A stretch of DNA of 64,000 nt from an uncultured Chloroflexia bacterium. GTDB taxonomy: Bacteria; Chloroflexota; Anaerolineae; JAAYZQ01. Of this stretch, positions 41,102-64,000 are shown piece by piece. Position numbers and translations under genes: made by a program. The notes beneath the pieces were generated by a model. It had not been told where the DNA came from, made no database searches, and worked only from the letters and a program-made list of their open reading frames with translations. The DNA lies in the NCBI GenBank assembly GCA_963700285.1, contig CAVOXA010000010.1:576001-640000 (forward strand), read 5' to 3'. Position 1 is the stretch's first letter. Each line of letters begins with the position of its first letter.

Positions 41102-41356
41102 ATGATGACATTGAAGCCACACCCTCGTACTCGTAATGCATGGCTGCGAAACGACATGCCCTTGGTCGTCAAGGCGCCGCATCTCAACGGCGATTCTGTA
41201 CCGGCATCGGTGGGTACGGCCCTCGACTTGTTGGGTGGCCTGGAGAGGACGATTCGGCCAGGCGACGAGGTGATGATCAAACCCAACTTGAACTGCTCGT
41301 ATGCCCTGCCGCTTTCGACGGAACTGGGCTTTTTGGCCGCGATGGCATCATCGTGA
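41102..41356 (+). pseudogene. DUF362-like N-terminal fragment truncated next to an IS end
   Basis: ALDLLGGL...IRPGDEVMIKPN. Confidence 0.6.
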
Positions 41357-41367
41357 AGGCTGAGGCC

Positions 41368-41985
41368 ATTGGTCACAAGTTAAGGATCTGATGAATCTGT
41401 CAAGTCGAGCAGCTCAAGTGGAGACGGTCGATGTTTCCGTTTGCGTTTGACAACCCCGAGCAACTTTGCATTGTCGGCCAGGTAGACGACGGGGTCGTCC
41501 GTTTCGCCCCGATGGTACGCTTGGGCGAAGTAATAGATGCTCCGGTAGACCATCTCCATAGAAATCGCTGCAAACGGCTTGTTCAGATGTTCGGCGATAG
41601 CGTCCGTCAAGTCGACCAAAATAGCATACAACAACCAGGTGGCCCACAACTCAAGCTCGACACCGTTCTGCGAGCCAACCCAGAAGTATGCCAGACCCAG
41701 CAACCGCTTGACGATGTTGTACGCATCTTCGATTCGCCAGCGCTGCCAGTAAAGTGCCACCACGTAGGGCGCCGGCAAACGCTCCGTATCCAATTCATTG
41801 GTCAGGTAGCGGTACCACTTGCCCTGGTACAGAACCTGGATGAGGCGAACCAACTTCCGGTCGTCGCCCTTGCCAATCCAAACCAGGATTTCGTGGACTT
41901 GGGCAGTCCGCTGCAGATAACGTTCGACCTCATAGGCCAGGTTACTCTTGGCTCGTGTCACGAAAGTGATGCCTGCCGTCGTCAG
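41368..41985 (-). mobile_element. IS4-family transposase, C-terminal half with right terminal repeat
   Basis: ITFVTRAKSN, YLTN.LD and LYWQRWRIEDAY..VKRLLG (YREK motif); putative end sequence CATTGGTCACAAGTTA overlaps the stop. Confidence 0.85.
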
Positions 41986-43931
41986 TAGTAGGTCCCACTC
42001 ACGTTCCAGACGCGGATCGCATACTGGTCCGGAGGTGTGACCCGGGAGGAGCCGGGCTCCCCATTATCGGTGACGTCTACCTGGAACTGGTAGTTGCCGC
42101 CGATGCTGCATAACACGCCGGTCAGCCGGTCCACGGCCTGGACAGTGTTCTTGCCGGTAATGGTGGCCTTGCAGCCGCCGGTGGTGTTCGCGCGGCAATC
42201 ATAGATGTTCAGGCCCTGCATGGCGTCGCTCTTGATGATCCAGTCATAGGCCCGCTCACCCGCTGGCGCGTTCGGCAAGATCGTGCTCAGGTCTGTGGTG
42301 ACGCGGTAGACGAAGAGGCTGTTGCCCTGGACCCGGCCTTTTTTGAGGAACTTGGCTGCAAAGCCAAAGTTGACGCGGCCGCTCGTGATCGGGTCGATCA
42401 ACCAGCCTCCGCCGGCGGCCATCCCCGTGCTCGGGTCGTTCACCAGGACGATTACTGTCTCAAATGGGGCCGCATAGTAGGGATTGACTACCAGGCTGAC
42501 CTTCACCTGGAAGGGATCTGACGCAGGGAGGTCCACGGTACAACTGCCATACCCTTTCCCATTGGCGACGTTGCCTATTTCTGCCGTGCACCCGGCCAGG
42601 GGCGTGATGAAGGTCGTGTCGTCGAAGCCAAAGACCTGGAGCAGGACTCCCTGCCCGCTGAGATGGTCGCCCAGTGAGCCGTCCTGCTGCTCCTCCAGAG
42701 TGGCAGCCAACGTCACCCTCGCCCTGGCCCCTTCTCTGGCAGTCGTGACCTGCGTATCGCCAGTGTAGGCGATTTCCGCACGCTCCTTGGTGTTCTCGAA
42801 GGGATCCGAGTCACTGCTTCCCAGGTACAGGGCATCTTTAGCAAAACTCGACACCACATCCAGCGCGCCGCCCGGCTGGCCCAGCAGGATGCTGCCCTTG
42901 GCCAGGCCGACGGCATTCGTGGTGGCGGAGGTCGACTGCGTGCCGATGGTGAAGCCGATCGTCTTGCCAGCGAGAGGTGCGCCCTGAAGACTGCCGCCGC
43001 CGTCGTCGGTCAGTATGGCCTAGACGACGGTCGAATCGGAGTACTGTGTTGAAGTGCTGCCGCTGTAGACGAGGGCTGTGGGCCGCTTCTGCACAGTGAT
43101 CTTGATCGCCTCCTCATCGCAGAGCGGGTCCGAGACGTCGCGTGTTGCACCGTTGTCGCAGACCTTCACCGTGAGGGTGCGATCCCCGATCTGGCTTGAG
43201 GTAGGCGTCCAGGCGAAGGCGCCGCCTGCCGTGATGCTGGCGCCGGTTGGGTCGCCCGCCAGGCTGAAGGTCAGCGCGTTGGCCGGGCGGTCTGGATCGG
43301 TAGCCGTGGCGCTGAACGTGAGCTTGTTGCCCCAGGTCGCCGACGGTGTCGAGGGCGGGTGGGCTGTTGACCTCGTGCACAGTCACGGCAATGGTCTCGC
43401 TGTCGCACAGCCCAGGCGCCCCGTTGTCGCAGACCTTGACGGTTAGGGGGTAGCTGCCAGGCCCCTGCTCCTCCGTCGGGGTCCAGGTGCCGGATAACAG
43501 CCCGCAGACCGTCGCATTCAGGACGCAGGTCTCGTACTCGATGGCGTTGCCGGTGTACGTGCCGCCCTGCGGCATATAGGTGCTCCGCAGTGGTTGCGGA
43601 TCGTGCCGTCGTTGGTGATCGTCCCTTGGAGAGCCAGCAGGGCATAGGTTTCAAAGACACCGGTCCCGGTGTTGTGGAGCGTGGTGCCGGCGGGGATGGT
43701 CAGGTCGGCCATGATTGGAATCGGGTTGACTGGTCGCCAGGCACTTCCCCCACCCGCCACTGTGCAGGTCTTGGAACCCTTGTTCCAGGTGCCGGGTAGC
43801 GCCGCGCACGAGGTCGCATCAAGGGTCGTGGCTTGCGCCGAGACAGGTTCAGCCAGCGGTCCGGCCGAGACGACTGGCAATAATCTTGCTGACAATAGAG
43901 CAACTACGATGCTTGGCCCCAAGTGTTTCAT
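41982..43931 (-). pseudogene. Internally deleted paralog of the 51215-56210 surface protein
   Basis: Same signal/head (ATTLDATSCAALPGTWN), last Ig repeat and C-terminal domain; large internal deletions, stops and a missing C-terminus. Confidence 0.88.
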
Positions 43932-44074
43932 GTTCTTTCTTCCTTCTCCCTGTCTCTGTATCTCCCCTTCTTTGCCGGCCGCATCCGTCACAAAGAACTG
44001 GAACAACTCCGCCAACCCGGCAAGGCGCCGCCCCGGGTCCTTACCCACTGATGCCGTTGCGAACTGACGCTAGA

Positions 44075-45647
44075 TCATGGGACCAGCTCGATCTCGCTGG
44101 GCTGCCAGGTTTTGTCGAAGAATGGCTCCAGCGGGCCGTAGAGGCGCAGGAGCACGAACCAGCCCCTGCCGGGGATGGTCTGGATCCAGTTGCCGCGCGC
44201 CACGCCATCGGGCTGCTCGGGAGCAAAGTATACCGTCGTGGAGCCGTCGGCGTTGGGCTCGGCGGCGGGCGACGGATAGCTCTGGCTGCCGGCGCGCGGA
44301 TAGCGCTGCGGCGTGTCGAGCATGGAGCGCGTCTGGTTGTCGTAGAGCGTCAAGGACCAGAAGTTCGCCGCAGGAATGTCCTCCGGCAGCGTCACCTTGT
44401 AGGTCTTGGCCCCGTCAAAGTACGCCTTGTTCGCATCCACCGTGGCCATAAGATATTGCGAGCCGATTCCGCTCAGGAGCATGCCCTCGGCCGGGCTGAC
44501 CATGATGACGCCGTAATGGAAATTGGTTCGAGCATCCAGCATGCGGTAGCCGGTGGGCGGGAAGGTCTTGACGCCTTCGGGCGTGCGCACGCCGTCCTGG
44601 ACCGGCCCCTCGATCACCGGAGGCGGGGTCTCGAAATCGTAGCCGCTGATGGTCAGCGTCAGCGGCATCCAGGCCGAGCCGGGGTAATAGTACCAGCCCG
44701 GATCGCGAGGACTCATGAAGAGGCTGCGCGCGGTGGCGTTGGCGACCTCGACCGCTTCGGTGAGGATCCTCTTCATCCGGGCGTCGGGCGCAAAGGGCTG
44801 GCCCTTGACGATGCCGATGGCGGCGATGGAACCCATCAACTCGGGGTCCAGCGAGCCGGCCGGCTGCTGCTGCACGACCTCGTTGAGCATCTCGTAGTAG
44901 CTAAAGTCGTTGGGCGGGATGGTGTTCATCACCTTGCCGCTGACGTCGTGGAAGACGGTCTCGGGCGGCGGCGTGATCGATCCGAGTTGCAGCCTCGCCG
45001 CGCAGGAACGTGGCGAAGGACGTGCCGACCCCGCCGGCCTCGTAGGGATAGATCTTGAGGAGCTTGCGGATCTGCTCGGCCGCCGGCTTGGGATCGTTGT
45101 TCTCCAGGAACATGCGGCCAAACCACATGACGTACGTGGTCTCGGCTTGGGCGATGAAGAACCCGCCCTCCGGCAGCGGGCCGTCGTAGCCGGGCGGCAG
45201 AATCAGGTATTTCCCGCCCAGACCGCGATCGGGACCGGGCCCGCCAAGGTCGATCACCCAGCGGAACCAGTAGTCGTTGATGGCGCCGAGGTACTTGGGT
45301 GGTGCCTCCAGCACCATGGGGCCACCGGTGAGGTCGAGGAAACCACCGGTATAGACCGTGTCCGCGTTGGTCGTCAGGATCACCGACTTGGCGTCCATCA
45401 ACTCGGAGAAGATGAGGGCCTCGTTGTCCGCCACGCCGGCCTCGAGCCAGCCCTGGTGCATGGCGTGCATGCTGACGCCCTGTACGGCGTTGACGAACGC
45501 CTCGAAGGCGTGTGTAAAGTCCAGGTTGTCATAGACCCTATCGAGCGTCTCCTGGCTCGGCATGCCGTCGGTGAACTCCAGGGTGCCGATTCGGGACTCG
45601 AACTTGTCGGGTGTCGTGATCCTCGACGGATAGATCGGATGCTTCAT
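44075..45647 (-). CDS. DUF1254/DUF1214 family protein; one apparent extra base near 44990
   Basis: ITTPDKFESRIGTLEF.DG.P, LTTNADTVY, GPDRGLGGKYL, GSQY, FWSLTLYDNQTRS, NWIQT.PG and LRLYGPL..FFDKTW. Confidence 0.85.
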
Positions 45648-45796
45648 CGTTTCCTCCTTGTTCGTCTTGCAGAATCTCTACGGGGCGTCCAATCTCCCCA
45701 GGGTCAGAGCGCTTGCGCTCTTGGTCGCGTTCTTTCCTCAGCTCCTCAGAACCGTTGGCGTCTTGATGTATTCAGGCTAGCAACTGCGCTCTCCGC

Positions 45797-46177
45797 CTAT
45801 CCCTCTACCTCGAATGGTTCGGACCCTGCGTCTTCTTCTCCCTGCCCTCGCCTCTCTCCGGCGGCGATCTGGCGGATCTGGTTCAGTGTCAGCGATTGGG
45901 CTGCCCGCCCTGAAAGCAGCACCGCCTGGTTGTGCTCTGTGTCCAGGCCGACCATTAGCGGGGGCGGGTCCTTGACCAGCAGCGGCAGGACGTGGCTTTC
46001 ACTGGTGCCGGTCCGGTCGAAGATGAGCACATCGGGCGTATGCTCGAGCAGCCGCTGCCCGGCCTCTGCCCACGTCCTGGCCCGCTCTACTTGCACTCCT
46101 GGAACCTCAGCCAGGCCCGCGGCCACACCCGACAGCAACAACGACTGGCCGTACAGCAAAACCGTTCGCGCGCTCAT
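45797..46177 (-). CDS. Atypical stand-alone receiver-like protein, copy A
   Basis: MSARTVLLYGQSLLLSGV...PDVLIFD; close paralog of 56313-56705. Confidence 0.75.
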   Translation of the reverse strand: MSARTVLLYGQSLLLSGVAAGLAEVPGVQVERARTWAEAGQRLLEHTPDVLIFDRTGTSESHVLPLLVKDPPPLMVGLDTEHNQAVLLSGRAAQSLTLNQIRQIAAGERRGQGEEDAGSEPFEVEG

Positions 46178-46370
46178 GCTTTCGGTATAGCAGTTGACGA
46201 GGCGTTTGTAACCTACCCGCGGGGATAGAAAAAGGATAGTCTCGCCAGCCGTGAGACTATCCCTGGGGATAGGGAGGGATAGGGCCGACTTTTCCTGGGG
46301 ATGGGGGCAGAGGGGGTGACAGGGAGACACGGGGACACGGAGACGAACAGACGCGGAGGAGGTCTCCCTA
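46178..46370 (-). promoter_or_regulatory. Cassette promoter, copy A (degenerate)
   Basis: 7-2-7 boxes at 46213, 46257 and 46289; -10 altered to TATACC, 6 nt before the ATG. Confidence 0.65.
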
Positions 46371-46424
46371 CGCCCGAGGCGCCCTGCCACTCTCTCCCAG
46401 TGTCTCTTTGTCTGAGTGTTACCC

Positions 46425-46540
46425 CATCGCTGCGCCCATCCGCTGTGGTGGGCGTAGGTGACCACCTGCTCGCGGTCCTTGAGGTGCAGGCGTTGCAGCA
46501 CCTCGCCCATGTGATACTAGACTGTGTGCTCGCTCAACTG
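46425..46540 (-). pseudogene. C-terminal HTH remnant of a NarL/LuxR regulator, copy A
   Basis: LSEHTV*YHMGEVLQRLHLKDREQVV matches the ends of the regulators at 56952 and 63069. Confidence 0.8.
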
Positions 46541-46591
46541 GGGCCAAAGATCCTGAGATTCAGGCCTCTGTCTGATCAATTCTGATCCGCT

Positions 46592-46631
46592 ATCAGGTGC
46601 CCGGCACCCTGCCGGGTGCCGGGCACCTGAT
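46592..46631. repeat. Perfect 18-bp inverted repeat (REP-like or terminator)
   Basis: ATCAGGTGCCCGGCACCC-TGCC-GGGTGCCGGGCACCTGAT, 4 nt after the stop of the 46636 gene. Confidence 0.85.
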
Positions 46632-46635
46632 GCAG

Positions 46636-51117
<4,482 letters not shown>

Positions 51118-51214
51118 CCTTTCCTCCTTTGTCTGTTGCTTCTTCCAAGTTCTGGGTCTGGTTAGGTCCTGCAGGCAAGTAGCGCTGGTTTTCTGGCCCC
51201 GAAAGGTGCCCTCC

Positions 51215-54200
51215 TTACTTCTTGGCTTTCACCTGGATATTGCCGCCCTCGATATCCAAGGGGGCAAGCAGGCTCCCCTTGCCATCATAGGTATTGCCCA
51301 ACTCGTAGTAGGTCCCAGTGACGTTCCAGACCCGGATCGCATACTGGTCTGGACTTGTAACCCGGGAGGAGCCGGGCTCCCCATTATCGGTGACGTCTAC
51401 CTGGAACTGGTAGTTGCCGCCGATGCTGTATAGCACGCCGGTCAGCCGGTCCACGGCCTGCACGGTGTTTTTGCCGGTGATGGTGGCCTTGCAGCCGCTC
51501 GTGGTCTTGTTCTCGCAGTCGTAGATGTTCAGGCCCTGCATGGCGTTGCTCTTGATGATCCAGTCATAGGCCCGCTCTCCCGCCGGCGCGTCCGGCAGGA
51601 TCGTGCTCAGGTCTGTGGTGACGCGGTAGACGAACAGGCTGTTGCCCTGGACCCGGCCCTTTTTCAGGAACTTGGCTGAAAGGCCAAAGTTGACGCGGCC
51701 GCTCGTGATCGGGTCGATCAACCAGCCCCCGCCGGCGGCCATCCCCGTGCCCGGGTCGTTCACCAGGACGATCACGGTCTCAAATTGGGCCGCATAGTAG
51801 GGATTGGCTACCAGGCTGACCTTCACCTGGTAGGGATCTGACGCGGGGAGGTCCACGGTGCAACTGCCATACCCCTTCCCGTTGGCGACGTTGCCTATTC
51901 CCGCCGTGCACCCGTCCAGGGGGGTGGCGTAAGTCGTGTCGCCGAAGCCAAAGACCTGGAACAGGACCTGCTGCCCAGCGAGCTGGTCGCCCAGCGAGCC
52001 GTCCTGGCGCTCCTCCAGCGTAGCAGCCAACGTCACCGTTGCCCTGGCTCGCTCCCTTGCGGTCGTGACCTGCGTGTCGCCGGTGTAGACTATCTCCGCG
52101 CCCTCCTTGATGAGCTGGAACAGGTCTGAGTCACTGCTGCCCAGGTAGAGAGCGTCCCCGACAAAGCTGGACGCCACAGCCAGCGCGCCGACTGGCTGGT
52201 CCAGCAGGATGCTGCCCTTGGCCAGGCCGTTGGCGTCGGTGGTCGCGGAGGTGGACTGCGTGCCGAGGGTGAAGCCGATGGTCTTGCTTGCGAGCGGTGC
52301 GCCCTGCAGGCTGCCGCCGCCGTGGTCGGTCAGTGTGGCCTGGACGGCGGTCGAATCGGAGTACTGCGTTGACGTACTGCCGCTGTAGACCAGGGCCGTG
52401 GGCCGCTTCTGCACCGTGATCGTGACGGCCTCCTGATCGCAGAGCGGGTCCGCGACGCCCCGCGTCGCGCCGTTGTCGCAGACCTTCACCGTGAGGTTGT
52501 GATCCCCGATCTGGCTTGAGGTAGGCGTCCAGGAGAAGGCGCCGCCCGTCGTAATACTGGCGCCGGTTGGGGCGCCCACCAGGCTGAAGGTCAGCGCGTT
52601 GGCCGGGCGGTCGGGGTCGCTCGCCGTGGCGGTGAACGCCAGCTCGTTGCCCCAGGTCGCCGTTTGGTCGCCGAGTGGGTCGAGGGCGGGTGGGCTGTTG
52701 ACCTCGTAGACGGTTACGACAATGGCCTCGCTGTCGCACAGCGGAGACGAGCCGTTGTCGCAGACCTTCACGGTGAAGGGGTAGGTGCCGGGCCCCTGGT
52801 CCTCCGCCGGTGTCCAGGAGAAGGCGCCGCCCGCCGTGATGCTGGCGCCGGCCGGGGCGCCCACCAGGCTGAAGGTCAGCGTGTTGGCCGGCAGGTCGGG
52901 GTCGGTGGCCGCCGCTGTGAAGGTCAACGCCGTCATCTCATCCACCGACCTGGAGCTGATGTCGCCGAGCACCGGCGCCCGGTTGACCTCGCGGACGGTG
53001 ACGGTGAGCCCTTCCTCGCCGCAGAGGGCTGGCGACCCGTTGTCACAGATCCTGACCTTGAAGCTGTAGTCGCCGGGCCCCTGGGCTTCGGTCGGCGTCC
53101 AGGAGAACTCGCCGTTGTCCGTGATGGTGGCGCCTGCCGGGGCGGCCACCAGGCTGAAGGCGCTCAGGGTGTTGGCCGCACCTGTCCCGCTGTCCGGGTC
53201 GCTCGCCGCCGCGGTAAAGGTCAGCGCGGTCATTTCATCCACGGACCTGTCGCTGATGGGGACAATGACCGGCGCCCGGTTGACCTCGGCCACGGCCACG
53301 GTGATCGCCTCCTCGTCGCACAGCGCAGGCGTCCCGCTGTCACAGACCTTGACGGTGAGGGGGTAGCCGCCGGCGCCCTGGGCTTCGGTCGGCGTCCAGG
53401 AAAAGGCCCCGCCCGCCGTGATGCTGGCCCCGGACGGGGCGCCCACCAGGCTGAAGGTCAGTGTGTTGGCCGCGCCCGTCCCGGTGTCCGGATCGGTCGC
53501 CATAGCGGTGAAGGCCAGCGCGGTCATCTCGTCCACGGTCTTGTCGCCGATGGCGTCGAGCACCGGCGCGCGGTTGACTTCGGTCACGGACACGGTGATC
53601 GTCTCCTCGTCACATAGGACAGGTGTGACATGGTCGCAGACCTTGACGGCGAAGGTATAGGTTCCGGCGCCCTGGGCTTCGGCCGGCGTCCAGGAGAAGC
53701 TGCCCCTCTCCGTGATGCTGGCGCCGGACGGGGCGCCCACCAGGCTGAAACTCAGTACGTTGTCGGGGTAGTCGGGATCGGTAGCTGTGGCCGTGAAGGT
53801 CAGCGCCGTCATCTCGGCCAACGACTTGTTGCCAATGGCGCCCAGCGCCGGGGCCTGGTTGACCTCGCGCACGGTCACGGTGATTTCTTCGCTGTTACAC
53901 CCGGTAGGATTCCCGTTGTCGCACACCCTGACCCTGAAGGTGTAGTCGCCGGGCCCCTGCTGCTCCGTCGGCGTCCAGGTGAAGGCGCCGCCCGCCGTGA
54001 TGCTCGCGCCGGCCGGGGCCTCCACCAGGCTAAAGGTAAGCGTGTTGGCGGCGCTGTCCGGATCGCTGGCCGTGGCCGTGAAGGTCAGCGCGGCCAGCTC
54101 GTTCACACCCTTGCCGCCGATGGCGCCCAGCACCGGGGCATCGTTGACGCAGGCCACCGCGATGCTCACCGTCGCCACATTGCTGTACAGCGCCCCATCA

Positions 54201-56210
54201 TACGCCTTGTAGGTGAACGAGTCGGAGCCGCAGTAGTTCGCCGCCGGGGTGTAGCTGAAGGAGCCATTGGCACTCAGCGTCACGCTCCCGTGCGCCGGGT
54301 TGGCGACCTTTGCCGCGGTCAGCGGGTTGCTCTCGGCATCGGTGTCGTTGGCCAACACGCCGGCGGCCGCGGCTACGCTCATCGGGGTGTCCTCCTTGCC
54401 GCTGCAGTCGTCGTTGTTGGCCACGGGGGCGGTGTTGCAGGCGTTGGCGATGGGGTTGCCGGTGAAGGCACCCTCGCCCCCGTAGGTTGCTCCGCAGTAG
54501 GCGTTGATCACGCCGCTGTTGTTGATCGTTCCCTCGTTGGCCAGCACGGCATAGTTTTCGATGACGCCCTGCGCGGTGTTGTCAATCGTGCCAGGGTAAG
54601 TGGAAGCCAACGGCATCTCAATATCCATGACCGCGAAGTGGGCCGTCGCCTGGCCAGCGGATCCGTTCACGATGGTGCCGGCGTTGGTCAAGGTGCCTCC
54701 CAGGACCCCGAAATCGTGGTCATTGTCCACCAGCCCGTTGTTGGTGAAGGCGCCGGCGCTGAACACCCCCTCATTGTGGACGGTCCCGTTGTTCACCAGT
54801 TCAGCTATATTGCTAAACGTGGCCCCAGATGCGACGTGGAGGGTCGTACCGGCGGGGATGGTAAGGTTGAGGGGAATTCCCGGCGGCTGCCCCGTGATCG
54901 TGCAGGTGCTGGACGCCGCTTCCCAGGCGCCGGGCAGCCACCCGCAGACGGTCTCATTCAGGAAGCAGGTCTTGTACTCGATGGGGGTGCCGCTGACGGT
55001 GCCGGTGCCCGTAACCATCGCTCCGCAGTAGCTGTAGATCGTGCCGCTGTTGGCTATCGTGCCGCTGTTGTCCAGATAGTAACGATGGTGGACCGTGCCG
55101 CTGTTGTTGAGCGTCCCCTGGTTGAGCAACCAGGCATAGTTGTGAAAGGCACCGCTCGCGGTGTTGTTGAAGGTGCCTGATTCGATTAGGAAGTGGGAGT
55201 CTGTCTGGCCAACGGCGCCATTGTTGATCGTGCCGGTGTTGGTGAAGGTGCCCCCCTCTGCTTGGACGGTTCCGTAGTTGGTCAGAACCCCGCTGTTGGT
55301 AAAGGTCCCGCCGTACCACGTCGGCCAGAGGGTGCCCTCTACGAGGATCGTCCCCAGGTTGACCAGGTCGACCTGATTTTGATTGCCCACCGTGGCGCCG
55401 GAAAGGATGTGGAGCGTGGCGCCGGCGGGGACGGTCAGGTCGAAGGGAACCAGATTGGTGCCACTGGCTACCGTGCAGGTACTGGACGCCGCGTCCCAGG
55501 TGCCGGATAACATGCTGCAGACGGTCGCATTCAGGTCGCAGGTCTCGTACTCGATGGCGTTGCCGGTGAACGTGCCGCCCTGCAGCATATAGGTCGCTCC
55601 GCAGTGGTTGCGGATCGTACCATCGTTGGTGATCGTCCCTTGGAGAGCCAGCATGGCATAGTTTTCAAAGACACCGGTCCCGGTGTTGTGAAGCGTGCCG
55701 CCGGCAGCGATCCCAATGCCCACATTTTCTGCGATCACGCCAGGGGCGCCGTTGTTGATCGTGCCCGAGTTGGTGAAGGTGCCCCCGTCCACACTGGTGA
55801 GCCCATGGTTGGTCAGAACCCCGCTGCTGCTGATGCTGAAGGTGCTGCTGAGGGTGCTGCTGGAGAACACGGCGAGGAAGGCGCCCTCAACGAGGATCGT
55901 CCCCTGGTTGACCAGGTCGGCCCCATTGATCACGCCTCCCGACGATGTGATGTGCAGCGTGGTACCGGCGGGGATGGTGAGGTCGGCTATAATCGGCACT
56001 GGCGAGGTTGGCGGAAAGGTATTCCTCCCCCTGCGTCACGGTACAGGTATTGGAGCCCTCGTTCCAAGTACCGGGTAGCGCTGCGCACGAGGTCGCATCA
56101 AGGGTCGTGGCTTGCGCCGAAACGGGTTCAGCCAGCGGTACGGCCGGGATTGCCAGCAACAGTCCTGCCAGTAGCAGACCAACCAACATGCATCGCCTTT
56201 GGTGCACCAT
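51215..56210 (-). CDS. Giant secreted protein of about 1665 aa: three beta-solenoid head modules, Big_9, six cadherin/He_PIG-like repeats, shared C-terminal domain; extra base in the C5 run at 56027-56031
   Basis: Signal peptide from ATG 56210 (AGGAG RBS); NTAPVANND; six VNxAP.L..I repeats; C-terminus GGGWLIDP...NFG...DNGEPG...GGNIQVKAKK. Confidence 0.85.
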
Positions 56211-56312
56211 GTTCTTCTCTCCTTCTGGTTGTGGGTAGCTGACGTGCTTCATGATTTCATCCGTCTCACGAGGGATCTTGAACGGTTACGGATTGCCTTT
56301 CCGTCTTTCTCC

Positions 56313-56705
56313 CTACTTCGAGCGGTCCAGACCCTGCCGCTTTCTCCGCGTCTCTCCTTCTCCCTGTTCCCGCATCTCCCTCTCTCCGGCGACGATCTGG
56401 CGGATCTGGCCGAGTGTGAGCGATTGGGCTGCCCGCCCCGAAAGCAGCACCGCCTGGTTGTGCTCTGTGTCCAGGCCGACCATCAGCGGGTGCGGGTCCT
56501 TGAGCAGCAGCGGTAGGATGTGGCATTCACTGGTGCCGGTCAGGTCAAAGATGAGCACATCCGGCGTATGCTCGAGCAGCCGCTGCCCGGCATCTGCCCA
56601 CGTCCTGGCCTGCTCTACCTGCACTCCTGGAACCTCGGCCAGGCCCGCGGCCACACCCGACAGCAACAACGACTGGCCGTACAACAAAACCGTTCGCGCG
56701 TTCAT
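56313..56705 (-). CDS. Atypical stand-alone receiver-like protein, copy B
   Basis: Receiver-like beta/alpha pattern with PDVLIFD but no N-terminal acidic pair. Confidence 0.78.
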   Translation of the reverse strand: MNARTVLLYGQSLLLSGVAAGLAEVPGVQVEQARTWADAGQRLLEHTPDVLIFDLTGTSECHILPLLLKDPHPLMVGLDTEHNQAVLLSGRAAQSLTLGQIRQIVAGEREMREQGEGETRRKRQGLDRSK

Positions 56706-56900
56706 GCTTTCAGTATAGCAGTTGGCGAGGCGTTTGTAACCTACCTGCGGGAATAGAAAAGGGATAGTCTCGCCAGCCGGGAGACTATCCCTGGGGATAG
56801 GGTGGGATAGGGCCGACTATTCGTGGGGATAGGGGGAGAGGGAGTGACGGGGAGACACGGGGACAGGGAGACGAAAAGACGCGGAGAAGGTCTCCCTACG
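56706..56900 (-). promoter_or_regulatory. Cassette promoter, copy B: extended -10, leaderless start, three 7-2-7 boxes
   Basis: TGCTATACT-N6-ATG; boxes at 56741-56756, 56785-56800 (perfect CTATCCC-TG-GGGATAG) and 56817-56832. Confidence 0.75.
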
Positions 56901-56951
56901 TCCGCGCAACCCGTCTCACTCTCCCCGCGTTTCTATCTGGGCGTCATCCCA

Positions 56952-57495
56952 TCACGGCGCCAAACCGCTGCGGCGGGCGTAGGCGACCACTTGCTCGCGG
57001 TTCTTCAGGTGCAGGCGTTGCAGGACCTCGCCCATGTGGTATCTGACGGTGTGCTCGCTCAAGTTGAGCGCAGCGCCGACCTCCTTGTAGCTCAGTATAT
57101 CGGCCACGAGGACAAGGATCTCGCGCTGGCGAGGGGTGAGCACGGGGGCCGGTAGTCCGCCGCGAAGGTCGGCGGCCGCCTGCTCGTCGAGCGCGGCAGC
57201 CTGCTGGGCAAACTCGCGCAGCAGGCGGGCGGAGAGCTCGCGGGATAGCTGCGCATCTCCCCGGGAAAGCCCGGCCAGGTAGTCGAACAGGTCGTTGGGC
57301 TCCAGGTTCTTCAGGAGATAGCCGGTGGCCCCGCTCTTGATGGCTTCAAACCGGTCGGCATCTTCCGCCGAAGTGGTGGGCATGACGATCTTGCACTCGG
57401 GCATCTCGGCCTGGATCAGTCGCGTGGCGGCCAGCCCGTCGCAATTCGGCATGCGGACGTCCATCAGGATCACATCCGGGTGCAGGGCGCGGGCC
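56952..57495 (-). pseudogene. NarL/LuxR response regulator, copy B, 5'-truncated and fused to unrelated sequence
   Basis: Nearly identical to the 63069 gene from ARALHPDVILMD onward; the first ~40 codons are replaced. Confidence 0.82.
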
Positions 57496-58140
57496 ACGGT
57501 GCCCAGCAGCAGGTGGGCCGGTCGCAGGGCGAAACTCATGCCGCTGACCGGACCCGGCAGGGACAGCCCATAGCCCCACGGCGAGACCAGGCACTGAAAG
57601 GGATAGACAAAGTGGCTGTCATAATGCAGGTAGCCCTCCAGCAGGCGGGACACCTGGATCCAGTCCCGCTCCAACAGGGCCGGCGTCACCGTTGATAAAT
57701 GCCGATGCAGTTTGGCACTCGTCGGACCATCGGCACCGGCTCAGCACGAGTTCGAGGGAACTCTGGTCATCGGGCCGGGGATGATCCAGGTCGAGACTCT
57801 GCCGGACTCTGGCGGTGAACGCAGCCAGGACCCAGTGGAATTCTCTGTCGACGTTTTCACCTTCGAGGACTTTCTGGTGCGGGTGGAGCCCGGCACCCCG
57901 AATGAGGATCAGCCACCTGGAAGCTGGGATTTCGTCTTTTCTCCCGGTAGCGTGTGGTCAGAGCCCGCCGACGGCGGACCAGAGAGTATCTCTCATGGGA
58001 GGAGAGGCGCAGCGAACCTGGAGCCGTTCGCCTCGCGGGGCAGGGCCAGCGCTACCGCCAGGCCTGGCTCCCGCAGTTCCCTCTGGGCGGGCCTGAAGGA
58101 ACCGAAGGCGCTACTGTCGTGCACTCACACGGTACGCACA

Positions 58141-58173
58141 GAAACCCGGCCCCCTTTCGCAGCGCCGGGTTTC
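58141..58173 (-). terminator. Possible terminator hairpin after the 58201 gene
   Basis: GAAACCCGGC...GCCGGGTTTC. Confidence 0.45.
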
Positions 58174-58200
58174 CTTCCATCTGGCGGCATCACCGCGCTG

Positions 58201-61200
58201 TTACTTCTTGGCTTTCACCTGGATGTTACCGGCCCCAATGTCCACGGGGCTGAGCAGCATCCCATGGTCATCGTAGCTATTGCCCAGCTCGTAGTAGGTA
58301 CCGCTGTTGTCCCAGATGCGGATGGCATACTGGTCCGGACCCGTCCCAGACGAGCCGGGCTCCTGGTTGTCAGTGACGTCCACCTGGAACTGGTAGTTGC
58401 CGCCGATGCTGTACAGCACACCGGTCAGGCGGTCGACGGCCTGGACCGTGGTCTTGCCGGTGATCGTAGCCTTGCAGCCGCTGGTGGTGGTTTTGTCGCA
58501 GTCGTAGATGTTTAGGCCTTGCATGGCGTTGCTCTTGATGATCCAGTCATACGCCCGCTCGCCGGCCGGCGCGTCCGGCACGATCGTGCTCAGGTCGGTG
58601 GTGACGCGGTAGACGAACAGGCTGTTGCCCTGGACCTTGCCTTTCTTCAGGAACTTGGCCGTGAAGCCAAAGTTGGCACGGGAGCCGCTATTGGGGTCGA
58701 TCAGCCAGCCGCCGCCGGCAGTCATCCCTGTCCCCGGGTCGTTGACCAGGACGATCATGGTCTCAAATTGGGCCGCATGGTAGGGATTGGTTACCAGGCT
58801 GATCTTCACCTGGTAGGGATCCGACGCAGGCAGGTCCACCGTGCAACTACCATACCCTTTGCCGCTAGCGATGTTGGTTATCTCTGCAGTGCACCCGGCC
58901 AGGGGCGTGGTGTAGGTCGTGTCGCCGAAGCCAAAGGCCTGGAACAGGACCTGCTGCCCGGCGAGCTGGTCGCCCAGCCAGCCGTCCTGCTCCTCCTCCA
59001 GGGTAGCGGCCAACGTCACCGTTGCCCTGGCTCCCTCCTTTGCCGTCGTGACCTGCGTGTCGCCGGTGTAGGTGATCTCGGCGCCTTCTTTGCTTACCGT
59101 GAACGTGCCCGCGACGTAGGTGATCTCATAGTTGGGGGCGACGCCGCCGGAACAGGTGATGGGGTAGGCACCGGCCGGGCTGAGGCGCTCACGGGTTGTC
59201 TGGCACGACGGCGCGGCGGTCAGGTACGGATTCGTCGGCCCCTCGCCCTCGATCCAACCACTGTACTGGAAGGCAAACGCGGGCGGGTTGGGTTCGGTGT
59301 AGTCCAGTTCCCAGTCGTCTGGCGTCACGGTCAGCGGTGCAGGCTCGATGGTCAGGGTACCGTTGGCCTTGGTCACGTTGTAGTTGGGGGTGGAGCCCAC
59401 GGCCACCACGATCGGATAGCTGCCCACGCCCGAATACTTGCCTGCCGTCGTGGACAAGTTGAAGCCGATGGCATCGCAACCCGACGCTTCGCCGATCACC
59501 GTCGCCGTCAGCTCCGGGTTGTCCTGGCCGTAGGTCTTGGTCTTGGCGTCCGCCGTGACCGAGGCAGCTTTCGTGTCGACCGTCAGCGTGGCGTTGGTCG
59601 TGGACACGTTGTAGTTGGGGTTGGCGCCCAACTCCACCACGATGGGATAGTCACTGGCGTTCGAGCACTTGACGGCTGTCGTGGACAGCGAGTAGTTGAC
59701 GCCCACTGAGCACACTGCGCCGGCCGCCGTTGCCGTCAGCACCGGGTTGTCGTCGCCGTAGGCCTTGCTCTTGTTCGCTGCGGTGACCGAGGCCGCCTTC
59801 TTGTTGACCGTCAGCGTGGCGTCGGTCGTGGACACGTTGTAGTTGGGGTTGGCGCCCAACTCCACCACGATGGGGTAGTCACCGGCGTTCGAGCACTTGA
59901 CGGCTGTCGTGGACAGCGAGTAGTCGATGCCCACAGAGCACACTGCGCCGGTAGCTGTGGCCGTCAGCGCCGGGTTGTCGTCGCCGTAGGTCTTGCTCTT
60001 GTTCGCCGCCGTGACCGAGGCCGCTTTCTTGTTGATCGCCAGCGTGCCGTTGGTCGTGGTCACGTTGTAGTTGGGGTTAGCGCCCAGTGTCACCGCAATC
60101 GGGTAGTCGCCAACGTCTGAGCATTCGACTGAAGTCGTGGACAGCGAGTAGTCGATGCCCACAGAGCACACTGCGCCGGTAGCTGTGGCCGTCAGCGCCG
60201 GGTTGTCGTCGCCGTAGGTCTTGCTCTTGTTCGCCGCCGTGACCGAGGCCGCTTTCTTGTTGATCGCCAGCGTGCCGTTGGTCGCGGTCACGTTGTAGTT
60301 GGGACTCGAGCCCAGCGTCACCAAGATCGGGTAGTCACCGACAGCCGAGCACTTGGTCGCCTCTGTCGACAGCGAGTAGCTGATGCTTGTAGAACACACC
60401 GCGCCAGCCGCCGTCGCCGTCAGCACCGGGTTGTCGTCGCCGTAGGCCTTGCTCTTGTTCGCCGCGGTGACCGAGGCCGCCTTCTTGTTGATCGCCAGCG
60501 TGGCGTCGGTCGTGGACACATTGTAGTTTGGGTTAGCGCCCAGTGTCACCGCAATCGGGTAGTCGCCAACGTCTGAGCATTTGACTGCCGTCGTGGACAG
60601 CGAGTAGTCGATGCCCACAGAGCACACTGCGCCGGTTGCCGTGGCCGTCAGCACCGGGTTGTCGTCGCCGTAGGCCTTGCTCTTGTTCGCCGCGGTGACC
60701 GAGGCCGCCTTCTTGTTGATAGTCAGGGTGCCGTTCGTCGTGGACACGTTGTAGTTGGGATTCGAGCCCAGCGTCACCACGATGGGGTACGAGCCGGCGT
60801 TCGAGCACTGGTTCGCTGCTGTCGACAGCGAGTAGTTGATGATGTCTCCACCCGCCGCCTGGCCGACCACCGTGGCCTTCAGGGCCGGGTTGTCCTGACC
60901 GAAGGTCTTGTAGGTGTCCACCGCCGTGACGGAGGCAGCTCTCTTATTGATGGTCAGTGTGCCGCTGGCGCTGCCCTGGTAGTTGGCCTCGTTGATCGTG
61001 GCCACCACAGCGTAGCTGCCAGCGTTGACCGGCGGCGCTGCCGAGCCGTTGTAGGTCACTTCTACTTTCAGGCCGGCCGGGTCGGTGGTAACCGTGACCG
61101 CTTTGGGCTGGCCGTCATAGGTCTGCGTGAGGTTGCCGAGTGTCACCGTGGCTGGCTGCAGACAGGCATTGACGATGGGGTTGCCGGTGAAGGTACCGCC

Positions 61201-62412
61201 CCCTGTGTAGCTGGCGCCGCAGTAGGCGTTGATCACACCGCTGTTGTCGACGGTGCCTGTATTGTTCAGCACCGCAGAGTTCTCGATGACACCGCCCGCG
61301 GTGTTGTGCAGCAGGCAGCTCGAACCGATCCCGAAGTAGTTTCGGTTGGTGATGGTACCGCTGTTGGTGAAGGTGCTGCCCTCATACAACTGGATCTGAT
61401 CATTGTTGATCACAACCCCGCTGTTGATGAAGGTCCCGGAACTCGAATCTGAGTAGAGGCTACTGTCATTGATGAGGGTCCCCGCGTTGATCAGCGTGCC
61501 CCAATTATCCATGGACGTGTTACTTCCGATGTGGAGCGTGGTGCCCACGGGGATCGTGAGCGTACTGTCTCTGCGGATCATAGCCCAGTCGACCAATATC
61601 GTGCACGTGCTCGACGCCGCGTCCCAGGCGCCGTTCAAGACCGTCCCACACGTGGCTCCATTCAGCTCATCGGGGGCGCACGCCACCACCTCAATGGCGT
61701 TGCCGGTGAAGGTACCGGTGCCCACATAGCTGGCGCCGCAGTGGGCGTTGATCACACCGCTGTTGTTGACAATCCCGCCGTTGTTCAGCACGGCGTAGTT
61801 CTCGACGACGCCGTCCGCGGTGTTGTTCAGCGTGCCGTTGGTAACGAACTGGAGCTCGCTCAGGTTACTGATCGTCCCCTCGTTCTTGATCGTTCCTGTG
61901 GTGTACAGCAAGGCATAGTTCTCGATGACGCCGCCCGCGGTGTTGTGCAGCAGGCAGCTCGAACCGATCCCGAAGTAGTTTCGGTTGGTGATTGTACCGC
62001 TGTTGGTGAAGGTGCTGCCCTCATACAACTGGATCTGATCATTGTTGATCACAACCCCGCTGTTGATGAAGGTCCCGGAGCTTGAATCTGAGTAGAGGCT
62101 ACTGTCATTGATGATGGTCCCCGCGTTGATCAGCGTGCCCCAATTATCCATGGACGTGTTACTTCCGATGTGGAGCGTGGTGCCCACGGGGATCGTGAGC
62201 GTCCTGTCCCTGCCGATCATGGCCCAGTCGACCGATATCGTACACGTGCTCGACGCCGCGTCCCAGGTGCCGTTCAAGACCGTCCCACACGTACTCGCAT
62301 CCAGGAGGTACTCGTCCGCCGATACCGGCGCAGCCAACGGGCCACCCAGGAGGGCCAACGCCAGTCCCAAGAACAACAGACCAACCCATATGCAGTGTCG
62401 TTGGTGCCTCAT
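58201..62412 (-). CDS. 1403-aa secreted protein: two beta-solenoid head modules, about nine MBG-type repeats, shared C-terminal domain
   Basis: Signal peptide; 76-aa repeats INKKAASVTAANKSKxYGDDNP...NPNYNV; C-terminus GNIQVKAKK. Confidence 0.9.
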   Translation of the reverse strand: MRHQRHCIWVGLLFLGLALALLGGPLAAPVSADEYLLDASTCGTVLNGTWDAASSTCTISVDWAMIGRDRTLTIPVGTTLHIGSNTSMDNWGTLINAGTIINDSSLYSDSSSGTFINSGVVINNDQIQLYEGSTFTNSGTITNRNYFGIGSSCLLHNTAGGVIENYALLYTTGTIKNEGTISNLSELQFVTNGTLNNTADGVVENYAVLNNGGIVNNSGVINAHCGASYVGTGTFTGNAIEVVACAPDELNGATCGTVLNGAWDAASSTCTILVDWAMIRRDSTLTIPVGTTLHIGSNTSMDNWGTLINAGTLINDSSLYSDSSSGTFINSGVVINNDQIQLYEGSTFTNSGTITNRNYFGIGSSCLLHNTAGGVIENSAVLNNTGTVDNSGVINAYCGASYTGGGTFTGNPIVNACLQPATVTLGNLTQTYDGQPKAVTVTTDPAGLKVEVTYNGSAAPPVNAGSYAVVATINEANYQGSASGTLTINKRAASVTAVDTYKTFGQDNPALKATVVGQAAGGDIINYSLSTAANQCSNAGSYPIVVTLGSNPNYNVSTTNGTLTINKKAASVTAANKSKAYGDDNPVLTATATGAVCSVGIDYSLSTTAVKCSDVGDYPIAVTLGANPNYNVSTTDATLAINKKAASVTAANKSKAYGDDNPVLTATAAGAVCSTSISYSLSTEATKCSAVGDYPILVTLGSSPNYNVTATNGTLAINKKAASVTAANKSKTYGDDNPALTATATGAVCSVGIDYSLSTTSVECSDVGDYPIAVTLGANPNYNVTTTNGTLAINKKAASVTAANKSKTYGDDNPALTATATGAVCSVGIDYSLSTTAVKCSNAGDYPIVVELGANPNYNVSTTDATLTVNKKAASVTAANKSKAYGDDNPVLTATAAGAVCSVGVNYSLSTTAVKCSNASDYPIVVELGANPNYNVSTTNATLTVDTKAASVTADAKTKTYGQDNPELTATVIGEASGCDAIGFNLSTTAGKYSGVGSYPIVVAVGSTPNYNVTKANGTLTIEPAPLTVTPDDWELDYTEPNPPAFAFQYSGWIEGEGPTNPYLTAAPSCQTTRERLSPAGAYPITCSGGVAPNYEITYVAGTFTVSKEGAEITYTGDTQVTTAKEGARATVTLAATLEEEQDGWLGDQLAGQQVLFQAFGFGDTTYTTPLAGCTAEITNIASGKGYGSCTVDLPASDPYQVKISLVTNPYHAAQFETMIVLVNDPGTGMTAGGGWLIDPNSGSRANFGFTAKFLKKGKVQGNSLFVYRVTTDLSTIVPDAPAGERAYDWIIKSNAMQGLNIYDCDKTTTSGCKATITGKTTVQAVDRLTGVLYSIGGNYQFQVDVTDNQEPGSSGTGPDQYAIRIWDNSGTYYELGNSYDDHGMLLSPVDIGAGNIQVKAKK

Positions 62413-62455
62413 CTTCTTCTCCCCTTTCCTGGCAGGAAGCGCGGCCTTCTTTTCC

Positions 62456-62842
62456 CTACTTTGCGCGGCGCAATGCCTGCCGCCTTCTGCCCATCGTTCC
62501 TTTTCCCCGTGGCTCCCTCTGTCCGGTAGCGACCTGCCGCATCTGTTTGAGTGCCAGCGACTGAGCCTCCCGCCCCGAAAGCACCACCGCCTGGTTCTGC
62601 CCGCTGTCCAGGCCGATCATTGTCGGGTGCGGGTTTTCCAGCAGCAAGGGCAGGACGTGGCTTTCGCAGCTGCCCTTCAGATCGAAGATCAGAACATCAG
62701 GCATGTGCTCGGCCAGCATCCGGCCGGCATCAGCCTAAGTCCTGGCCCGTGCCACCTGCAGACCCGGCACCTCGGCCCGTGCTGCGGCCACACCCGACAG
62801 CAATCGCGATTGCCCGTACAACAAGACCCTTCGCGCGTTCAT
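62456..62842 (-). pseudogene. Atypical receiver-like protein, copy C, with an in-frame TAG
   Basis: ATG at 62842. The Trp codon of copies A and B (ARTW) is TAG at 62735-62737. Confidence 0.8.
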
Positions 62843-63035
62843 AGTTGCAGTATAGCAGCTGGCGGCGGGTTTGTAACCTCCCTGCGGGGACAGAAAAAGG
62901 ATAGTCTCGCTATCCGGGAGACTATCCCTGGGGATAGGGAGGGATAGGGTCGACTATTCCTGGGGATAGGGGCAGAGGGGGTGACGGGGGAGACAGGGGG
63001 ACACGGAGACGAAAAGACGCGGAGAAGGTCTCTCA
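62843..63035 (-). promoter_or_regulatory. Cassette promoter, copy C
   Basis: TGCTATACT-N6-ATG; 7-2-7 boxes at 62878, 62922 and 62954. Confidence 0.75.
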
Positions 63036-63068
63036 CTCCCCGCGTCTTCTTAGCCGGGCGTCATCCCA

Positions 63069-63731
63069 TCACCGCGTCAATCCGCTGCGGCGGGCGTAGG
63101 CGACTACTTGCTCGCGGTTTTTGAGGTGCAGGCGCTGCAGGACCTCGCCCATGTGATACTTGATCGTGTGCTCGCTCAGGTTCAGCGCCGTCCCGATTTC
63201 TTTGTAGGTCAATCCATCGGCCACGAGGACGAGGATCTCGCGCTGGCGAGGGGTGAGCTCGGGGGCCGGTGGTCCGCCGCGCAGGCCGGCGGCCGCATGC
63301 TCATCGAGCGCGGCTGCCTGCTGGGCAAACTCGCGCAGCAGGCGGGCGGAAAGCTCGCGGGACAGCGGCGCCTCTCCCCGGGCGAGCCCGGAGAGATAGT
63401 CGAACAACTCGTTGGGCTCCAGGTTCTTCAGGAGATAGCCGCTGGCCCCGCTCTTGATCGCTTCGAACAGGTCGGCGTCCTCCGCCGAAGTGGTCAGCAT
63501 CACGATCTTGCACTCGGGCATCTCGGCCTGGATCAGTCGCGTGGCGGCCAGCCCGTCGCAATTCGGCATGCGGACGTCCATCAGGATCACGTCCGGGTGC
63601 AGGGCTCTGGCCAACTGGAGGCCCTCCAGGCCATCGTGGGCGGCGCCGACCACCTGGTACCCGCCGGCACGGAGCAGGTTCTGCAAGCCCTCCAGGAAGA
63701 GGCTGTGGTCATCTACCAGCAGGATCTTTAT
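63069..63731 (-). CDS. NarL/LuxR-family response regulator, copy C (full length)
   Basis: KILLVDDH, DVILMDVRMP, MLTTS, GYLLK and LTPRQREIL...KEIG HTH. The apparent first codon is ATA, overlapping the kinase stop. Confidence 0.92.
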   Translation of the reverse strand: MKILLVDDHSLFLEGLQNLLRAGGYQVVGAAHDGLEGLQLARALHPDVILMDVRMPNCDGLAATRLIQAEMPECKIVMLTTSAEDADLFEAIKSGASGYLLKNLEPNELFDYLSGLARGEAPLSRELSARLLREFAQQAAALDEHAAAGLRGGPPAPELTPRQREILVLVADGLTYKEIGTALNLSEHTIKYHMGEVLQRLHLKNREQVVAYARRSGLTR

Positions 63732-64000
63732 GATGTCCCTCCCATGTTCCCGTCCAGCCGCACGCGCACCTCCACCAGGGTGCCCTGGCCGGGTGACGAA
63801 TGCACGGTTAGTTGCCCGCCGATGCGCTGGGCGCGCTGGCGCATGACCTGTAGCCCAAAATGCTGGCCGCCCGGGCCTGCCAAGGCCGGGTCAAAGCCGG
63901 CGCCGTTGTCCACGATCGCCATTTGCAACTGGCCGTCACCGGCCCCCATCCGCACACCGACCTGGCTGGGCGATCCGGCGTGCTTGCGCACGTTGGCCAG
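63728..64000 (-). CDS. NarX/LiaS-type sensor histidine kinase, C-terminal HATPase part (starts outside the window)
   Basis: ANVRKHA, DNGAGFDP, HFGLQVMRQRA and SPGQGT. Confidence 0.9.
   Translation of the reverse strand: MANVRKHAGSPSQVGVRMGAGDGQLQMAIVDNGAGFDPALAGPGGQHFGLQVMRQRAQRIGGQLTVHSSPGQGTLVEVRVRLDGNMGGTS

Follow-up and report, generated by a model that had tools for sequence, protein, structure and literature searches.

A three-unit tandem array of receiver-like and giant surface-protein genes beside a single sensor kinase in a Chloroflexota genome

How does a single sensor system come to stand beside several giant surface proteins, and can it command them all? The question is raised by one end of a 64,000-nucleotide stretch of DNA from an uncultured Chloroflexia bacterium (G000:C10:576001-640000; this whole stretch is called the window below), in which a regulator gene or its remnant, a conserved intergenic region, a small gene and a giant surface-protein gene recur three times. 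Filamentous Anaerolineales abound in sediments and sludge, and to our knowledge little has been learned about the control of their huge surface proteins. An earlier reading of the same DNA, here called the original prediction, saw a portable regulatory cassette, amplified by tandem duplication in front of different cargo genes, that places a repertoire of adhesins under one two-component system. The explanation that we prefer, and to which we give an even chance of being right, is an old tandem array of three paralogous units under one kinase and one full NarL-type regulator that would drive all copies of the promoter, each repeated unit consisting of a terminator hairpin, CTATCCC repeats, a promoter, a small receiver-like gene and a giant surface-protein gene. 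In spirit (one sensor system, several promoter copies, varied surface proteins) the original prediction is partly supported, and the present array is likely to be decaying rather than a fully working repertoire.

All genes of the repeat array lie on the minus strand, and its units are called C (62.4-63.7 kb), B (56.3-57.5 kb) and A (45.8-46.5 kb). G000 denotes the window's genome, G001 a genome of the same genus and G022 one of another genus, while L0xx stands for related loci or contigs and P0xxx for homologous proteins; the source names of the homologues and related contigs point to Anaerolineales or Chloroflexota. When the region from 40 to 64 kb is aligned with itself by blastn, 56301-57496 matches 62445-63613 with 83.2% identity over 1199 nucleotides (nt), 45831-46537 matches 56353-57062 with 88.5% over 713 nt, and 45851-46536 matches 62516-63178 with 78.3% over 687 nt, all three at E <= 4e-167. 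Three copies in the same orientation are thus found at the positions given for them earlier, and the conserved intergenic region is present in each. In the same comparison the 3' ends of the adhesin genes are repeated (41985-43487 against 51305-52818, 87.5%; in B and C, 51215-52109 against 58201-59092, 85.5%), as are the 5' ends of adhesins A and B (43669-43947 against 55947-56226). The idea of a cassette set before independent cargo fails here: the adhesins belong to the repeated unit and are paralogues with common ends.

How much of a two-component system does the array hold? The signalling genes are as follows.

63728-64000, minus strand: 3' end of a sensor histidine kinase gene, which continues past the window to about 65437 (L033:728-2437)
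63069-63731, minus strand: regulator C, the sole full-length NarL/FixJ-type response regulator, overlapping the kinase stop TAA
56952-57496, minus strand: regulator B, a 5'-truncated copy whose homology to C begins at 'ARALHPDVILMDV'
46428-46537, minus strand: regulator A, of which 110 nt of the 3' end remain, interrupted by an in-frame TAG

The kinase has 569 amino acids (aa) in an intact frame, is 85% identical to P0106 and matches the Pfam families HisKA_7TM (5.5e-33), PAS_4, HisKA_3 (1.5e-10) and HATPase_c (2.7e-14). Regulator C, 80% identical to its G022 orthologue, matches Response_reg (7.4e-24; 84.5 bits against a cut-off of 30.2) and GerE (2.5e-16; 59.5 bits against 23.5), and the motifs LLVDDH, DVILMDVRMP, VMLTTS and GYLLKN, assigned by eye against the usual receiver pattern, cover the acidic pair, the phospho-acceptor Asp, the Thr/Ser and the Lys. 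Its start codon is ATA; the homologous codon is ATG in the seven loci with a readable start, and L026 and L037 matched the start pattern too, but have no ATG at that codon. A GGGAGG Shine-Dalgarno-like motif is present at the start, and there is no in-frame ATG, GTG or TTG upstream of 63686. At 63728-63731 a single base is both the middle of the kinase stop (TAA) and the third base of the regulator start (ATA); one G>A change there would preserve the kinase stop yet abolish the canonical regulator start.

A NarL-type regulator had been counted three times; only that of unit C is whole. Regulator B shares only its 3' 545 nt with C, 490 of them identical, and its receiver therefore lacks strands and helices 1 and 2; its Response_reg match begins only at profile position 38. 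The longer open reading frame (ORF) at 56952-57689 opens with 65 unrelated codons, which come from the unique spacer upstream. Within the retained part, L>P, L>R and G>I changes fall on positions conserved in C and in G022.

What, then, might a regulator recognise in each unit? The control regions read as follows.

62843-63068, minus strand: control region C, with palindromes at 62954-62969 and 62922-62937 and a hairpin at 62899-62928 followed by T5
62849-62877, minus strand: promoter C, with -35 GTTACA and -10 TGcTATACT, and the ATG 6 nt past the -10
56706-56951, minus strand: control region B, with a terminator-like hairpin at 56873-56895 after the regulator stop and CTATCCC repeats between 56750 and 56832
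56712-56800, minus strand: proximal part of control region B, with a perfect palindrome at 56785-56800, a hairpin at 56762-56791 followed by T4, a promoter at 56712-56740, and the ATG 6 nt past the -10
46178-46427, minus strand: control region A, with a perfect palindrome at 46257-46272, a hairpin at 46234-46263 and a -35 at 46206-46211

From regulator stop to small-gene ATG the control region measures about 245 nt, and its proximal 133 nt are 87-92% identical among the copies. On the coding strand of unit B the terminator-like hairpin is followed by an imperfect 7-2-7 inverted repeat, a lone CTATCCC, the perfect palindrome, the second hairpin, a run of four to five T, another CTATCCC, GTTACA, 17 nt, TGcTATACT, six bases and the ATG. 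The perfect 7-2-7 palindrome is CTATCCC-CA-GGGATAG, and the hairpin, GGGATAGTCTC-N9-GAGACTATCC, uses the right half of that palindrome as its 5' arm. The 16-nt palindrome CTATCCCnnGGGATAG occurs three times in the 7.05-Mb genome, always in these copies, where 0.03 occurrences are expected; near-matches elsewhere are at chance level (about 30 with two mismatches, against 25 expected), so that the genome-wide near-matches give no indication of a wider regulon beyond the three copies. A mechanical promoter scan selects exactly the B and C sites of the control regions and misses promoter A, though overall it is not enriched (4 found against 2.9 +/- 1.6 expected). The gap between -10 and ATG is 6 nt in all three copies; the box stands too near the ATG for a leader, and the small gene is therefore predicted to be leaderless. 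As to termination, the stem-loops at 56762-56791, 62899-62928 and 46234-46263 are putative intrinsic (Rho-independent) terminators.

NarL sites are paired inverted heptamers ('7-2-7'). The likeness to the NarL/FixJ type lies in the Response_reg and GerE domains of regulator C and in a control region with two 7-2-7 inverted repeats and direct heptamer copies reaching to the -35. It differs in that CTATCCC is not known to match the NarL consensus, and in that the strongest inverted repeat has one of its halves in common with a covarying hairpin, whose 5' arm it forms.

The first gene behind each of these promoters is the small one.

56313-56705, minus strand: small gene B, 130 aa, intact
45797-46177, minus strand: small gene A, 126 aa, open, 87% identical to P0002
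62456-62842, minus strand: small gene C, with TGG>TAG at codon 36 (62735-62737), which encodes the family-invariant Trp36

A homologous copy does stand in each unit, as had been claimed, but that of unit C is broken by the nonsense codon, and the ORF named for it earlier (62456-62719) is a mere tail because of the TAG at 62735-62737; the C copy is altered at two further family-invariant positions (L13R, L22R). A 237-aa ORF at 45797-46510 was rejected as a genuine longer protein, as it reads through control region A. The family comprises 102 homologues, which are 86-152 aa long and have no Pfam domain; the small protein itself has no NCBIfam match and no Pfam hit at E <= 0.01. A look through 1694 candidates turned up no fused or longer form, a result of little weight.

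An AlphaFold2 model of small protein B (pLDDT 80.6, with helix 4 short or absent) resembles receiver domains in VIA-align, with Z scores of 10.5-12.2 and receiver-type proteins in 49 of the top 50 rows; the best match is the ArcA receiver (Z 12.2, rmsd 2.6 A over 100 residues), and Foldseek matches are weak (E about 6e-3). The model thus points to a predicted receiver-type (beta/alpha)5 fold. In the family alignment the acidic pair after beta1 is replaced by Y9 (at least 90% kept) and the invariant G10, a register that agrees with the CheY alignment, and D54 at the end of beta3 (at least 90% kept) aligns with the phospho-acceptor Asp of CheY. No invariant or near-invariant Lys follows beta5, where strand 5 reads AVLLSG, and no Cys is invariant or nearly so. 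Since the acidic pair is lost, the Asp kept and the Lys not conserved, 'pseudo-receiver' is a fair label for the small protein.

Does the same arrangement exist elsewhere? Synteny in relatives bears the original prediction out on this point: in other Anaerolineales contigs a core recurs that consists of a 7TM-PAS kinase, a NarL-type regulator, the hairpin with its T-run, CTATCCC repeats, the promoter, an ATG 6-9 nt past the -10, a receiver-like protein of about 110 aa and then a variable secreted cargo. G022 carries the regulator, the same control region, the small gene and then a secreted protein of more than 2020 aa, and the layout of the control region is also found in the metagenomic or metagenome-assembled contigs L017-L032. 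Of the 17 related loci L016-L032, 11 have a palindrome with at most one mismatch ahead of the small gene; the gap from -10 to ATG is 6 nt in 12 of 16 and 8-9 nt in the other four. Where at least 700 nt of upstream sequence are available, a regulator or kinase lies directly upstream in nine of ten loci, and G021 holds at least four complete paralogous sets of kinase and small gene. The cargo varies by locus (InlB-B/TSP3, cadherin-like, NHL, Big_1 with an alkyl-sulfatase dimerisation domain, collagen). The module may therefore be called portable in so far as it recurs before unrelated secreted cargo in other Anaerolineales, but in the window the adhesin was copied along with the unit. Two loci depart from the usual order: at L027:2-1162 the block and small gene follow a gene for a surface protein, and no regulator lies closer than 1.4 kb, and at L024:3544-3885 a second small gene has the -10/ATG arrangement and no palindrome. 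Small-gene units can thus follow other cargo genes without an intervening regulator.

These relatives also allow one to ask what the conserved block is for. The hairpin pairs in 88.7% of cells, against 38-50% with slid controls; three of its pairs have changed on both sides, its covariation score was reached by none of 500 shuffles, and on the sense strand it contains G-U pairs. For most of 19 sequences the prediction is a stem of 11-15 bp with a T-run behind it; the T-run is missing from the group of L022, L024 and L029. The block could accordingly be read as nothing but the intrinsic terminator of the upstream operon followed by a constitutive promoter, with the regulator acting elsewhere and the small protein serving the surface proteins, for example in export or folding. 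The covarying hairpin with its T-run and sense-strand G-U pairs favours such a reading, as do the scant covariation of the 7-2-7 palindrome, the L027 block remote from any regulator and the palindrome-free second gene of L024. Terminator stems, however, are not normally conserved in sequence across genera; the heptamer is repeated three to five times outside the stem, up to the -35; the small gene follows a kinase-regulator pair in nine of the ten informative loci and is paired with kinases at least four times in G021; and the predicted receiver-like fold would point to signalling partners. We therefore consider a mere terminator and promoter improbable.

The giant surface proteins are the other half of the preferred explanation, in which a common control is joined to varied cargo. 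They and their neighbours are as follows.

58201-62412, minus strand: adhesin C, 1403 aa, intact, with two head modules, MBG repeats and the common C-terminal 300 aa
58141-58173, minus strand: G+C-rich hairpin just past the adhesin C stop, terminator-like with a weak T-run, missed by the mechanical scan
51215-56210, minus strand: adhesin B, in which a frame change splits the signal-peptide part (ATG 56210) from the 1594-aa remainder
46636-51117, minus strand: intact TSP3-repeat surface protein of 1493 aa, which has a signal-like N-terminus of its own
44075-45647, minus strand: DUF1254-DUF1214 gene with a frameshift near 44991, found in unit A only, between small gene and adhesin
41982-43931, minus strand: adhesin A remnants in three frames, resembling adhesin B with large internal deletions
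41380-41961, minus strand: transposase fragment directly adjoining the truncated 3' end of adhesin A (DDE_Tnp_1 with a Pfam E of 1.4e-4, short of the curated cut-off)

The cargo domains listed in the original prediction are all there: MBG_2 and MBG_3 in unit C, Big_9, Cadherin and He_PIG followed by the TSP_3 protein in unit B, and DUF1254 with adhesin fragments in unit A, although the last is in fact a frameshifted DUF1254-DUF1214 gene, for which the relatives' contigs have one base fewer at 44990-44992. Adhesin C has a signal-like N-terminus (judged by eye), MBG_2 (5e-114), MBG_3 (1.1e-45) and a sub-threshold post-COAP-1 match; adhesin B carries Big_9 (3.7e-57), Cadherin_4, He_PIG and a tandem-95 repeat (1.1e-55). 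The last 300 aa of B and C are 84% identical and their head modules 38-42%, while fragment A3 of adhesin A is 88% identical to B; the head of the TSP3 protein is 24-27% identical to that of adhesin B. Among the adhesins only the stalks differ, being MBG in C and cadherin-like/tandem-95 in B. As the ends are shared and only the stalks differ, the units were copied together with their adhesins.

Repeats within the stalks are themselves arranged in tandem. Six repeats of 228 nt at 59484-60923, 68-88% alike, encode the MBG domains of adhesin C, and five of about 290 nt at 52582-54036 the cadherin-like units of adhesin B. At 46961-49550 about 24 head-to-tail repeats of 99 nt (33 aa), 76-87% alike, each encode a Cys-rich TSP3 unit of DxDxDG type, and in short metagenomic contigs of relatives there are joints that skip or repeat such units. 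No terminator was seen in the 97-nt gap between adhesin B and the TSP3 gene. The insertion sequence (IS) remnant, which holds the C-terminal part of a DDE transposase, covers 41380-41961 and 40785-41376 and lies exactly at the point where adhesin A breaks off. ORFs on the plus strand that overlap the adhesins were rejected as genes: they have no Pfam hits and lie in high-GC sequence.

Large repetitive adhesins are known to form tandemly duplicated families in which the ends are conserved and the stalks vary, and the present paralogues resemble them in their common signal, head and C-terminal domain and in their differing repeat stalks. They differ in that each copy here brought along its own control region, small regulatory gene and piece of a regulator.

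How old is the array? Synonymous divergence (dS) between copies is 0.12 for small genes A and B, 0.29 for regulators B and C, 0.33-0.44 for the adhesin C-termini (0.33 for A and B) and 0.60 for small genes B and C. The copies are old and not a recent amplification. The tandem copies of the supposed regulator cassette are real, but with dS of 0.12-0.60 they are old, and two of the three regulator copies are fragments. The ratio of nonsynonymous to synonymous divergence (dN/dS) is 0.29-0.39 between the small-gene copies in the window and 0.2-0.39 over small genes, regulator B and adhesin C-termini. In a tree of 32 small proteins, small C falls with G022 and seven metagenomic sequences into a clade with 98/97 support, and small A and B, with eight others, form its sister group; forcing A, B and C into one group, a group chosen with knowledge of a first tree, lowers the log-likelihood by 23 units (AU p = 0.027). 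Regulators B and C, by contrast, are 88% identical in amino acids, more than the 80% between regulator C and that of G022. As regulator B is nearer to C than C is to its G022 orthologue, while small C is nearer to the G022 gene, the units are probably mosaics, presumably made by gene conversion. The spacer between units C and B

57497-58200, minus strand: 704 nt, unique, its end part encoding the unrelated N-terminal 65 codons of ORF 56952-57689

has no second copy in the genome by blastn or tblastx, and neither have the 97 nt before the TSP3 gene or the 149 nt after small gene A; with no second copy of these flanking spacers, the duplication junctions could not be reconstructed.

Such a mosaic raises the question of whether stalks are still being exchanged, with the conserved 5' part and the 3' 0.9-1.5 kb of the adhesins serving as recombination arms that move stalks between expressed and silent units. 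Conserved ends around unrelated stalks fit this idea, as do the uneven dS values (regulator B-C 0.29 against small B-C 0.60; small A-B 0.12 against adhesin C-terminus A-B 0.33) and the conflicting affinities of regulator B and small C, which suggest past gene conversion. With no more than 84-90% identity, however, the arms are ill suited to frequent homologous exchange; apart from the IS fragment no recombinase or invertible element is seen at 41-65 kb; and alternative joints appear only in the relatives' short contigs. Cassette-type variation of this kind is highly improbable.

Is the array itself real? The assembly is of metagenome type (7.05 Mb in 22 contigs, 89% complete, 6.5% contamination), and no public run with the source reads was found, the best matching at most 13% of sampled words from 54001-64000; strain or species variants of a single unit might therefore have been strung together. 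However, the locus sits inside a 2.15-Mb contig, the copies differ by 12-28% and have distinct stalks, flanks and truncation points, the unique 704-nt spacer and the TSP3 and DUF1254 genes intervene between units, and small A/B and small C belong to different clades, each with relatives elsewhere. Misassembly of the array is unlikely, because the copies have diverged, the spacers are unique and the small genes lie in separate clades, and we give the idea of strung-together variants hardly more than negligible weight. Four runs mapped on 44001-64000 gave only short contigs of 151-356 nt. Some, from two DNA runs and one metatranscriptome library, are identical to the window (for example over 56483-56644 in small B, 54378-55985 in adhesin B and 59003-59377 in adhesin C), and most others come from relatives; they neither confirm the assembly nor show transcription, because such libraries can contain DNA. 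Loose ends at 57496 and a joint 57485>63888 were rejected as evidence on this strain, since they derive from the intact regulator genes of relatives.

If one kinase and one regulator do command the three units, then phosphorylated regulator would bind the CTATCCC repeats just upstream of the -35 and would activate the sigma-70-type promoters, all copies together. Transcription would begin on or right beside the small gene's ATG and so give leaderless transcripts, and the hairpin with its T-run would end transcription arriving from the upstream gene. The small protein would in turn feed back on the kinase, as the inhibitors Osp and FixT do; we give this predicted step roughly one chance in three.

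A number of findings weigh against this explanation. The ATA start of regulator C should permit little translation, small gene C has its TAG, and the -10 of promoter A (46184-46189) is TATACC, its final T lost. In adhesin B the frame changes by one base somewhere from about 55990 to 56040, a stretch with a run of five G at 56027-56031, and adhesin A lacks its last 30 or so codons, unit A being fragmentary as a whole; the indel lesions, for their part, could be assembly errors. The 7-2-7 palindrome, though 86.4% paired, hardly covaries, and the repeated motif overlaps a hairpin that does, so that what is conserved may in part be there for termination rather than for the binding of a protein. 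As for the receiver nature of the small protein, BLASTP gives no match to regulator C, receiver profiles are not significant (Response_reg at E about 0.02 in 3 of 27 members, VpsR in 8 of 27), and neither are the matches of the family profile to CheY, PhoP and DesR in the PDB (E 0.7-1.6). Lastly, G001, a genome of the same genus that is 90% complete, yielded no small gene and no orthologue of the kinase, and the locus is therefore dispensable.

The original prediction of an adhesin repertoire under one two-component system holds in that three promoter copies stand beside a single intact kinase gene, but there is a lesion in every unit. Given at least one lesion per unit, including ATG>ATA in the sole full regulator, a working repertoire is doubtful. 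One may go further and regard the array as a relic in which B, A and perhaps the whole locus are pseudogenised, with at most adhesin C and the TSP3 protein still made. The lesions in each unit, the substitutions of conserved residues in regulator B, the cutting of adhesin A by an IS fragment and the failure to find the locus in G001 all agree with this. Yet dN/dS of 0.2-0.39 means that purifying selection acted during most of the divergence; the reading frames of small genes A and B, of adhesin C, of the TSP3 protein and of the kinase are open; the palindromes and promoter elements of B and C are perfectly preserved; and the indel lesions may be errors of assembly. A relic of this kind is, in our judgement, rather unlikely, though it deserves to be taken seriously.

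Further along the same strand, downstream of the array, are a giant surface protein of 1775 aa at 27745-33072 (C39-like peptidase, FG-GAP, cohesin, dockerin) and a second cohesin protein of 506 aa at 25931-27451; no copy of the control region precedes either gene. A 646-aa ORF at 37760-39700 carries the ligand-binding domain of neurotransmitter-gated ion channels (Neur_chan_LBD, 1.3e-10) and is a homologue of Cys-loop-type receptors. At 35160-36542 lies a gene for the selenocysteine synthase SelA (6.8e-141); the organism therefore probably uses selenocysteine, and some in-frame TGA codons elsewhere may be read.

For the preferred explanation, in which one kinase and regulator serve all units and the small protein acts back on the kinase, two known systems offer a model. 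Osp of Rhodobacter sphaeroides is described as a single-domain, response-regulator-like inhibitor of CckA that keeps the Asp and has lost two acidic residues and the Lys; it is activated by the regulator of its own system and inhibits the kinase (PMC9430884). By comparison with that description, the small protein is likewise a single receiver-like domain in which the beta3 Asp is kept and the beta1 acidic pair and beta5 Lys are absent, and its gene likewise stands behind a promoter with the presumed motif of the cognate regulator near the -35 (here predicted), which is the layout of a feedback loop. There are also differences from Osp: here the small gene is the first of a unit that runs into surface-protein genes and is predicted to be leaderless, and the kinase is of the 7TM-PAS-HisKA_3 type, whereas that of Osp is the hybrid CckA. 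FixT of Caulobacter and Sinorhizobium is described as a receiver-domain feedback inhibitor of FixL, induced by its own pathway, that lowers autophosphorylation of the kinase (PMC7078487). In that description it shares the single-domain receiver-type form with the small protein; Caulobacter FixT has a four-Cys Fe-S motif, whereas the small-protein family has no conserved Cys. In the literature we found no paper joining pseudo-receivers, Chloroflexi and response regulators. We speculate, while giving the idea little credence, that the locus might represent an undescribed surface-protein switch of the Anaerolineales, in which the terminator stem would double as regulator sites, a leaderless pseudo-receiver would feed back, the block would be copied without the kinase-regulator pair so that one sensor commands several adhesins, and the conserved arms would allow stalks to be exchanged.

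What does the locus mean for these bacteria? The window itself presents an old, partly broken array and not a fresh innovation. Together with its relatives, however, it defines a conserved, testable and as yet undescribed unit: a sensor kinase with its regulator, a promoter region in which a short motif is repeated and which is conserved with precision, and an unannotated receiver-like family of more than 100 sequence clusters that has no Pfam or NCBIfam model and whose residue pattern is that described for Osp. If the proposed mechanism is true, regulator-induced feedback by a pseudo-receiver would extend from the Alphaproteobacteria to the Chloroflexota, and the array would show how families of adhesins can grow while remaining under one sensor.

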